DNA of 63,441 nt, filler included, from Neolecta irregularis DAH-3 (lineage: Eukaryota): the NCBI GenBank assembly GCA_001929475.1. It is 10 parts of 10 records of this genome, joined end to end, with 100 filler letters (N's around TTAATTAATTAA, not from the genome) between each part and the next. Parts side by side here need not be neighbours in the genome. Positions count along the whole stretch, not along the records: positions 41,887 to 46,894 come from LXFE01000948.1; 9 more parts are not named here. One strand, 5' to 3'. The notes beneath the pieces are model-generated. The model saw only the letters and a list, made by a program, of their open reading frames with translations, had not been told where the DNA came from and ran no database searches. Within the stretch, counting starts at the first letter, position 1. Every line of letters starts with the position of its first letter. Position numbers and translations under genes: made by a program. Below, piece by piece: positions 44,401 to 45,188 of this stretch.

Positions 44401-45188
44401 TTAAGCAGTATACCTGTAGTCAGGAACCAGATGCTATCAAATACCTTACGTGAGGACTTCGAACCCATCAAGGCTTTGGCGTCGAGATTCCTTCGCTTCA
44501 GAGAAACTTGTTTTGAGAATAAATACAGGGATGCACACTTACGTAATGGCAGTAAACCCATCTATCTCGCATTCTCGAAGCAAGGGCAAGAAAGACTCAA
44601 TACCCGTGCCGAAAGTATTTTCACCGGAATAACTAGGTGGTTGGAGTGTCTACAAAAAGGCGGTGTTTGTACGTGATGTAAAGAAATCCATCTTCATCTT
44701 TGTGCTCCTCATAGATGCTGCTCATAAGGGCAGCCGTGGGTGGCAAAACCTCATCGACAAAGATAAAAATGGCCTTCTCCGGCGAAAGCTTGATGCGTTT
44801 TCTGATGACGTAGACAAACTGGCCAACTGTGAGATCCGATGGAACAAGATACTTCTTCTTGTCGATGGTTGCGATATCTGACTTTTCAACTTTCTCGCAG
44901 ATAACCTGGATGGCTGTCAGCATAGTCGAAGATGACGAGATGCAGGTCGACAACGGTCTGAACCATCCTGGTACAAGAAAGACCTGCAATCAGGATTTAC
45001 ATACCGGGATACGGTCGTTATATTTATCTCGGATTCGCTTGCTTTCCGACTTCCGCTTCTCTAGCTGAATTAGGAGGAGCCGGAGACGGGAGAAGAAATA
45101 CCAAAGGAGTGCTCACTCTTAAAAGTAGATACGGTACTAGACAGCGAATCAACACTAGATAAAAGAATAAAATTGACGGGCACCTCAT
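44401..45188 (-). CDS. ATG8: Autophagy ubiquitin-like protein Atg8 with a long C-terminal extension (stop at 44539 if the tail introns are unspliced)
   Basis: [43 protein letters not shown]...[15 protein letters not shown]. Confidence 0.95.

Follow-up and report, generated by a model that had tools for sequence, protein, structure and literature searches.

A predicted 44-residue tail, encoded by spliced micro-exons that repeat a core strand motif, follows the conjugation glycine of Atg8 in Neolecta irregularis

As a rule, the tail of an Atg8 protein has just a few residues and is treated as disposable, and Atg8 priming is usually regarded as constitutive. To our knowledge, the only long tail in the Atg8 family that has been studied is that of human LC3C. 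Atg8 is made as a precursor that Atg4 cuts after a glycine (PMC7564214 and PMC7615515); plant and worm Atg8 tails span 0 to 7 residues, and the C-terminal tail of Atg4B itself carries a conserved canonical LC3-interacting region (LIR), as stated in PMC7615515. In LC3C, a 20-residue peptide at the C-terminus is both required and enough for cargo selectivity, according to PMC8129795. Here we describe an Atg8 gene of the early-diverging ascomycete fungus Neolecta irregularis DAH-3 (Taphrinomycotina) whose reading frame continues for 44 residues past the conjugation glycine. The gene lies on the minus strand, at positions 45188–44401 of a stretch of 63,441 nucleotides (nt), filler included, that joins ten parts of ten records of assembly GCA_001929475.1 (hereafter the window); the part concerned comes from LXFE01000948.1.

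Reading of open reading frames (ORFs), together with a model built and translated by coordinates, gave seven exons and six introns, all of them GT-AG (Table 1). The spliced coding sequence of 489 nt specifies 162 residues, with the conjugation glycine of YSGENTFG at residue 118. Beyond Gly118 the frame stays open, and the tail is composed of 22 residues from exon 5, 19 from exon 6 and a final YTA before the stop in exon 7. The preliminary description of this DNA had proposed such an in-frame tail after ENTFG, with introns at 44507–44542 and 44414–44449, and all of its coordinates proved right.

By every sequence test run, the gene is a member of the Atg8/LC3/GABARAP family. The 77 amino acids (aa) of exon 4 matched Pfam ATG8 (PF02991; expectation value (E) 1.7e-36, with 125 bits where the cut-off is 27), were identical (100%) to many Pezizomycotina Atg8 proteins in a protein homologue search, and retrieved Atg8 chains among solved structures (best 6aaf_A, E 2.2e-43). 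The aromatic-Gly conjugation site is present at the end of the fold.

Splicing of the tail could be followed in root metatranscriptomes. All nine RNA runs listed were of this kind, with a word share of 0.04 each (none reached half of the sampled words), and none from N. irregularis itself was found among them; contigs from four of the nine were aligned to the window at ≥85% likeness. In each of these four runs, one contig of ∼590–660 nt from a close relative (∼92% identical) joins across the Atg8 introns. The relative differs from the window at 36 of 482 aligned letters (∼7.5%), namely 10/108 in the 3′ untranslated region (UTR) plus exon 7, 5/57 in exon 6, 17/228 in exon 4, 1/58 in exon 3 and 3/31 in exon 2. 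The four contigs share the same differences and thus represent one relative present in four libraries, not four independent lineages.

Both tail introns, for which the preliminary description had called for an RNA check, are removed in the relative's contigs in all four runs. At the joint 44506→44676, 93 letters stand between the aligned pieces, corresponding to 3 nt of exon 4 and the 90 nt of exon 5, and a net 76 nt is gone (36 + 40), so that neither intron 4 nor intron 5 remains in the relative's RNA. Because 93 is divisible by three, the core can continue in frame into exon 6 and on to the same stop. At the joint 44409→44450, 4 letters stand in for the window's 4 and a net 36 nt, equal to intron 6, is gone. 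The exon 7 junction reads ACC TAC in the relative where the window has ACG TAT, both changes being synonymous third positions, and the contig reaches 44302, ∼100 nt beyond the Atg8 stop, before running on as a loose end. In the window, the splice signals of the tail introns are intact (GTAAGT for intron 5, GTAAGG for intron 6 and CTGAC preceding the final AG). These RNA joints support the gene model, in which both 36-nt tail introns are spliced out and the tail has 44 residues.

The same root metatranscriptomes also contained several more abundant Atg8 transcripts of unrelated organisms, which overlap only 35–140 nt of exon 4. The loose end of one of them, reverse-complemented, reads ...SGENTFGY-stop, an ordinary short tail that provides an internal contrast.

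Table 1. Exons, introns and motifs of the N. irregularis Atg8 gene, in window coordinates, with the corresponding RNA observations
Feature	Position	Strand	Details
Exon 1	45184..45188	-	ATGAG, start codon 45188-45186; the relative's RNA contig has a loose end at 45132 that, reverse-complemented, reads ...ATG AGC ACT, then exon 2
Intron 1	45137..45183	-	47 nt, GT-AG, phase 2; out of the relative's RNA contig
Exon 2	45102..45136	-	From sequence; RNA piece aligns at 45102-45132
Intron 2	45061..45101	-	41 nt, phase 1; RNA joint 45060→45102 in 4/4 runs
Exon 3	45005..45060	-	RNA piece 45003-45060, 1 letter different
Intron 3	44906..45004	-	99 nt, phase 0; RNA joint 44903→45003 in 4/4 runs, cut shiftable by 2
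Exon 4, Atg8 core (VICEK...EDGFLYI-T)	44673..44905	-	Ends in module A DGFLYIT, 44692-44673
Intron 4	44633..44672	-	40 nt, GT-AG, phase 2, within Thr codon; out of the relative's RNA (44506→44676, 93 letters between)
Exon 5, 90 nt	44543..44632	-	YSGENTFG (Gly118 codon 44610-44608) and 22-residue tail part 1
Exon 5 motifs		-	xLIR match ESFLPL 44598-44581; module B DGFTAIT 44562-44543
Intron 5	44507..44542	-	36 nt, GTAAGT..AG, phase 2; out of the relative's RNA
Exon 6, 57 nt	44450..44506	-	Module C DGFEVLT 44469-44450; RNA piece 44450-44506, 52/57 letters alike
Intron 6	44414..44449	-	36 nt, GTAAGG..CTGACTACAG, phase 2; RNA joint 44409→44450 with 4 letters between, 4/4 runs
Exon 7, coding part	44401..44413	-	(T)YTA and stop TAA 44403-44401
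3′ UTR, at least this far	44302..44400	-	RNA piece 44302-44409, 98/108 letters alike; contig extends beyond

The tail repeats a motif of the Atg8 core. Three copies of the module DGFxx[IL]T|[YF][ST] are present, DGFLYIT|YS in the core and DGFTAIT|FS and DGFEVLT|YT in the tail, and each copy ends its exon at AC|GT, with a phase-2 intron inside the Thr codon. Counting across the six frames of the whole window (126,878 positions) returned DGF..[ILV]T three times, a recurrence beyond chance, each time in the Atg8 gene and each time ending in AC|GT; the shorter pattern DGF..[ILV] occurs eight times in the same translation. The threefold module and its intron position, already recognized in the preliminary description, are confirmed by this count and by the exon borders. 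Over the last 20 exon nt, pairs of copies are identical at 12–14 positions, and the codons kept between modules differ at synonymous third bases (GGA/GGG, TTT/TTC, ATC/ATT). Seven of the nine module positions have been preserved while their surroundings decayed.

How far the copies resemble each other at the DNA level bears on the proposal, also made at the outset, that the tail arose by duplication of an exon junction. The only direct repeat in 44380–44720 is the junction of modules B and C, 25 nt at 72% identity with a spacing of 93 nt, equal to exon 6 plus intron 6; Tandem Repeats Finder gave 0 rows for 44300–44800. The shared phase and codon position at three junctions and the B/C repeat speak for duplication, whereas introns and flanks are no more alike than shuffled sequences. 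Likeness confined to ∼25 nt implies either that the duplication events are old or that the likeness has been maintained by selection. Junction duplication is a plausible origin for the tail and the simplest one, but it would have to be old. The module may persist because of selection on the protein, because of the splice-site context in very short introns, or for both reasons.

Among the collections searched, the tail is found in no other sequence. The query translated the tail region in one frame, straight through both 36-nt introns, from the tail part of exon 5 to exon 7, and carried X in place of its five stops. Proteins of 122–2000 aa in a 5.8-billion-protein collection gave 26 word-sharing candidates, none with E ≤ 10; metagenome contigs gave 599 pattern matches, 0 of them confirmed; and neither a Pfam family nor a PDB chain matched the read-through. 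An exact 62-nt stretch of exon 4 (44757–44818), unchanged in the relative, likewise had 0 matches in metagenome contigs. A lone match among 1.84 billion representatives (E 3.8e-4, 1143 aa, six stretches) was rejected as a chance match whose score is inflated by repetition, because it is a six-fold repeat protein of no Pfam family that aligned over intron-encoded and X residues with 12 of 26 identities per stretch.

Other Atg8 proteins place this length in context. Among the 120 Atg8 matches listed, a biased set in that all exceed 135 aa, 48 hold ENTFG, and 44 of these 48 have tails of 1–7 residues. The other four are fungal gene models or contig ORFs with tails of 34–51 residues, two of them named (Fusarium oxysporum Fo47 and Penicillium expansum), and none of these four tails showed similarity to that of Neolecta (best E 0.84). 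A full-text literature search pairing Neolecta with Atg8 found no paper, a search on long Atg8 tails found general reviews only, and the main text of the Neolecta genome paper (PMC5309816) mentions neither introns, RNA-seq nor autophagy.

The remaining 72 listed matches, which lack ENTFG, offer a view of intron 4. Fifty-two of them are read-through ORFs of the form ...DGFLYIT[YC][VA]..., mostly from Pezizomycotina or metagenomes, a form implying that the Atg8 introns in question follow the Tyr codon in phase 0, 4 nt further on than the phase-2 intron within the Thr codon in Neolecta. The offset is due either to a slight sliding of the intron or to an intron of separate origin.

The preliminary description had also asked whether the tail is conserved in related taxa. 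In the one relative, exon 6 is alike at 52 of 57 nt, counted over the exon as a whole; the exon 5 half falls below 85% likeness, and the collections searched gave no match. The tail is most likely lineage-specific, as judged from these comparisons.

We consider it rather probable that the tail is a real, lineage-specific propeptide of 44 residues that goes back to old duplications at the DGFLYIT|intron|YS junction and that Atg4 cuts off behind Gly118, leaving an ordinary mature protein. The gene, which looks single-copy and has very short introns of 36–99 nt, would give an mRNA encoding a 162-residue precursor, canonical Atg8 up to Phe-Gly118 and then a propeptide to which the 3′ end of exon 5 contributes together with exons 6 and 7. 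The stop codon would have moved downstream, and two micro-exons would have been added, through two old tandem duplications of the short stretch comprising DGFLYIT, the phase-2 intron and YS. A cut by Atg4 after Gly118 is expected by analogy with every other Atg8 and would yield an ordinary lipidatable protein; the tail, we propose, is tolerated because Atg4 removes it. We infer this cleavage from the behaviour of the family and from the tolerance of Atg4 for arbitrary downstream sequence, given that Atg4 cleaves Atg8 used as an N-terminal tag off other proteins (PMC4414272). The three motifs of the tail that resemble LIRs, also called Atg8-interacting motifs (AIMs), would be largely inherited from the Atg8 strand motif, and if the tail masks the LIR-docking site until it is cleaved off, which is possible, that would be a secondary effect.

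Several observations weigh against this interpretation. The RNA that documents splicing belongs to a relative ∼7.5% different from the window, not to N. irregularis DAH-3, and contigs reveal the dominant form only, minor isoforms being invisible in them. Translation and cleavage of the tail are predictions. Duplication, for its part, is deduced from the motif and the intron position only, since similarity outside the ∼20–25-nt motif is absent: intron–intron and flank–flank local scores were matched by 348 to 1839 of 2000 shuffles. In addition, the 93 letters that represent exon 5 in the relative are <85% alike although the 3′ UTR is alike at 98 of 108 letters (91%), suggesting that part of the tail evolves fast. 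Finally, the retention of the module amid decayed surroundings argues for selection on it and fits poorly with a purely disposable tail.

An alternative, raised in the preliminary description, takes the tail as a regulatory propeptide, its motifs ESFLPL, DGFTAI and DGFEVL docking in the LIR-docking site of Atg8 either in cis, as auto-inhibition or a means of timing priming, or in trans, as a released 44-residue competitor. We regard this as unlikely, although it draws on several lines of evidence. The xLIR expression (PMC5119064) matches the 162-residue product three times, at residues 122–127 (ESFLPL), 134–139 (DGFTAI) and 153–158 (DGFEVL), all in the tail and none in the core, where 0.06–0.08 matches would be expected in the 39 tail positions; the background was 35 matches in 17,200 positions of window ORFs of at least 100 aa, and the published match rate is 1.5e-3 (PMC5119064). 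The tail carries a net charge of −4, the nine-residue module was preserved as a whole, and the cleaved LC3C peptide offers a precedent for function in such a tail (PMC8129795). DGFEVL, acidic and 4 residues from the C-terminus, was judged the most LIR-like of the tail motifs. Immediately upstream of it, RRQS followed by Leu (44473–44484, minus strand) forms what we take to be a basophilic kinase consensus of the protein kinase A type, phosphorylation of which might tune the interaction.

The same motifs can be read less generously. All three motifs named in the preliminary description as AIM-like do fit the xLIR expression, but that expression is unspecific by the account of its own paper (PMC5119064), and two of the three matches copy Atg8's own DGFLYI, which itself misses the expression at one position only. 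The enrichment may thus have been inherited with the strand motif and not selected. In the relative, likeness of the tail half encoded by exon 5 stays under 85%, the collections searched gave nothing related to the tail, and the kinase site is a putative one.

Structure prediction adds a further, weak indication. Residues 1–116 of Schizosaccharomyces pombe Atg8 (ATG8_SCHPO) served as stand-in, and the partner was a 30-residue exon 5 peptide that also carries YSGENTFG and does not include DGFEVL. The predicted complex scored 0.44 (runs 0.44, 0.43 and 0.47) against 0.02 for the best of three controls, with at least 70% of contacts agreeing between runs and a partner pLDDT (predicted local distance difference test) of at least 53. 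It falls in the class 'weak support', with no interface reported and with peptides outside the benchmark, a class in which errors outnumber correct calls unless there was good prior reason for the guess. In calibration, 51 of 78 solved complexes reached the mark, as did 2 of 108 mismatched pairs; scores of ≤0.60 accounted for only 5 of these 78 complexes and for all 4 of the mismatches that passed (of 180). A role of the tail in AIM regulation is possible. The more elaborate version, in which the LIR-bearing propeptide holds the docking site in cis, excludes receptors and the Atg4 LIR until cleavage and then persists as a 44-residue competitor, with RRQS as a potential phospho-switch, strikes us as quite doubtful.

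Less probable still, and in our view a slim prospect, is that the tail introns remain unspliced or partly spliced in N. irregularis, exons 6 and 7 then reflecting incidental splicing in a 3′ UTR. AC|GTAAG stands at the 5′ splice site of each tail intron, and retention therefore brings an in-frame TAA at once: the product would stop at 44541–44539 with a 22-residue tail if intron 5 is kept, or at 44448–44446 with a 41-residue tail if intron 6 is. The nine runs listed, with a best word share of 0.04, include none from the window's organism, which leaves room for this reading. The relative's contig nevertheless lacks both introns in 4/4 runs, its 93 letters and its 4 replacing letters preserve the frame, its exon 7 changes are both synonymous, and the window's own splice signals are intact.

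Skipping of exon 5, which the preliminary description had envisaged as a source of an in-frame Atg8-like isoform that cannot be lipidated, is correct in its arithmetic (the 90-nt and 57-nt exons are symmetric and introns 4–6 all phase 2) but highly improbable as biology, because the joint 44506→44673 is absent in 4/4 runs, all of which include the 93 letters between 44506 and 44676 (rare variants drop out of contigs, so that the isoform went unseen but is not thereby proved missing), and because skipping would also delete YSGENTFG, the end of the ubiquitin-like fold.

The surroundings of the gene are consistent with the stated source. An adjacent coproporphyrinogen oxidase exon (45957–46649, plus strand) shows 100% identity, across 98% of its length, with a protein listed by NCBI for N. 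irregularis DAH-3, the next-best matches being from Saitoella at 70–72%; the DNA is thus that of N. irregularis or of something that this gene does not distinguish from it. Directly downstream of Atg8 lies a CAP/PR-1 gene (42375–44057, minus strand) whose Ser/Thr-rich, secreted-looking product has a C-terminal CAP domain (Pfam CAP, E 1e-11) and a ∼17-residue unit, MGIP[TA]SYVNQTGV[FL]S[TK]S, in three tandem copies; its signal-like start, MRFLLSSALAGLVA, and the Atg8 stop are a mere ∼340 nt apart. Elsewhere in the window, two adjoining long exons (29443–30366 and 31882–32757, both plus strand) both correspond to one and the same section of the GDA1/CD39 nucleoside phosphatase family, with E values of 4e-45 and 3e-53, and apparently represent a tandem gene duplicate.

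The Neolecta tail would be a second, independent long Atg8 tail, supported by RNA, built from the modifier's own strand motif and holding all LIR-type motifs of the protein. As such, it provides a natural experiment on whether the propeptide of a ubiquitin-like modifier is able to control priming or to mask a docking site; if the cis-masking reading were true, Atg8 priming would become a regulated step. Even if the tail is merely tolerated, the result is a correct gene model likely to be missed by automatic annotation, and a small, clean candidate case of junction duplication with 36-nt introns extending a highly conserved gene beyond its stop codon. In sum, it is a verified oddity in a very conserved gene of one obscure lineage, with a testable hypothesis attached and a function that is proposed only.

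Set against canonical fungal Atg8 precursors (PF02991), the Neolecta protein has the same core and the same ...ENTFG end with the conjugation glycine; trimming by Atg4 is described for the family (PMC7564214 and PMC7615515) and would be expected here. Unlike them, it bears a 44-residue tail spread over three exons that repeats the core's own DGFxxIT-YS module. Tandem micro-exon (exon-junction) duplication would account for the motif at exon ends, for the shared intron phase and codon position at three successive junctions and for the 93-nt spacing of B and C, which equals one exon plus one intron, whereas the Neolecta copies lack detectable DNA similarity beyond ∼25 nt.

Human LC3C, which also belongs to the Atg8 family, likewise has a peptide beyond its lipidated glycine that is unusually long and restricted to a lineage, and that is removed on processing (PMC8129795). 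This peptide of 20 residues is not described there as made of core repeats or as LIR-bearing, whereas the Neolecta tail has 44 residues and is fungal; no sequence relation is claimed. The C-terminal LIR of Atg4/ATG4B resembles the tail in placing acidic-aromatic-x-x-aliphatic motifs in a flexible terminus, with DGFEVL, 4 residues from its end, in a similar position. It differs in that the Neolecta motifs belong to the Atg8 precursor itself, where they lie downstream of the scissile bond, with binding only weakly predicted. By analogy, the nearest functional precedent for the Neolecta tail would be the LC3C peptide, and its nearest mechanistic counterpart the Atg4 C-terminal LIR.

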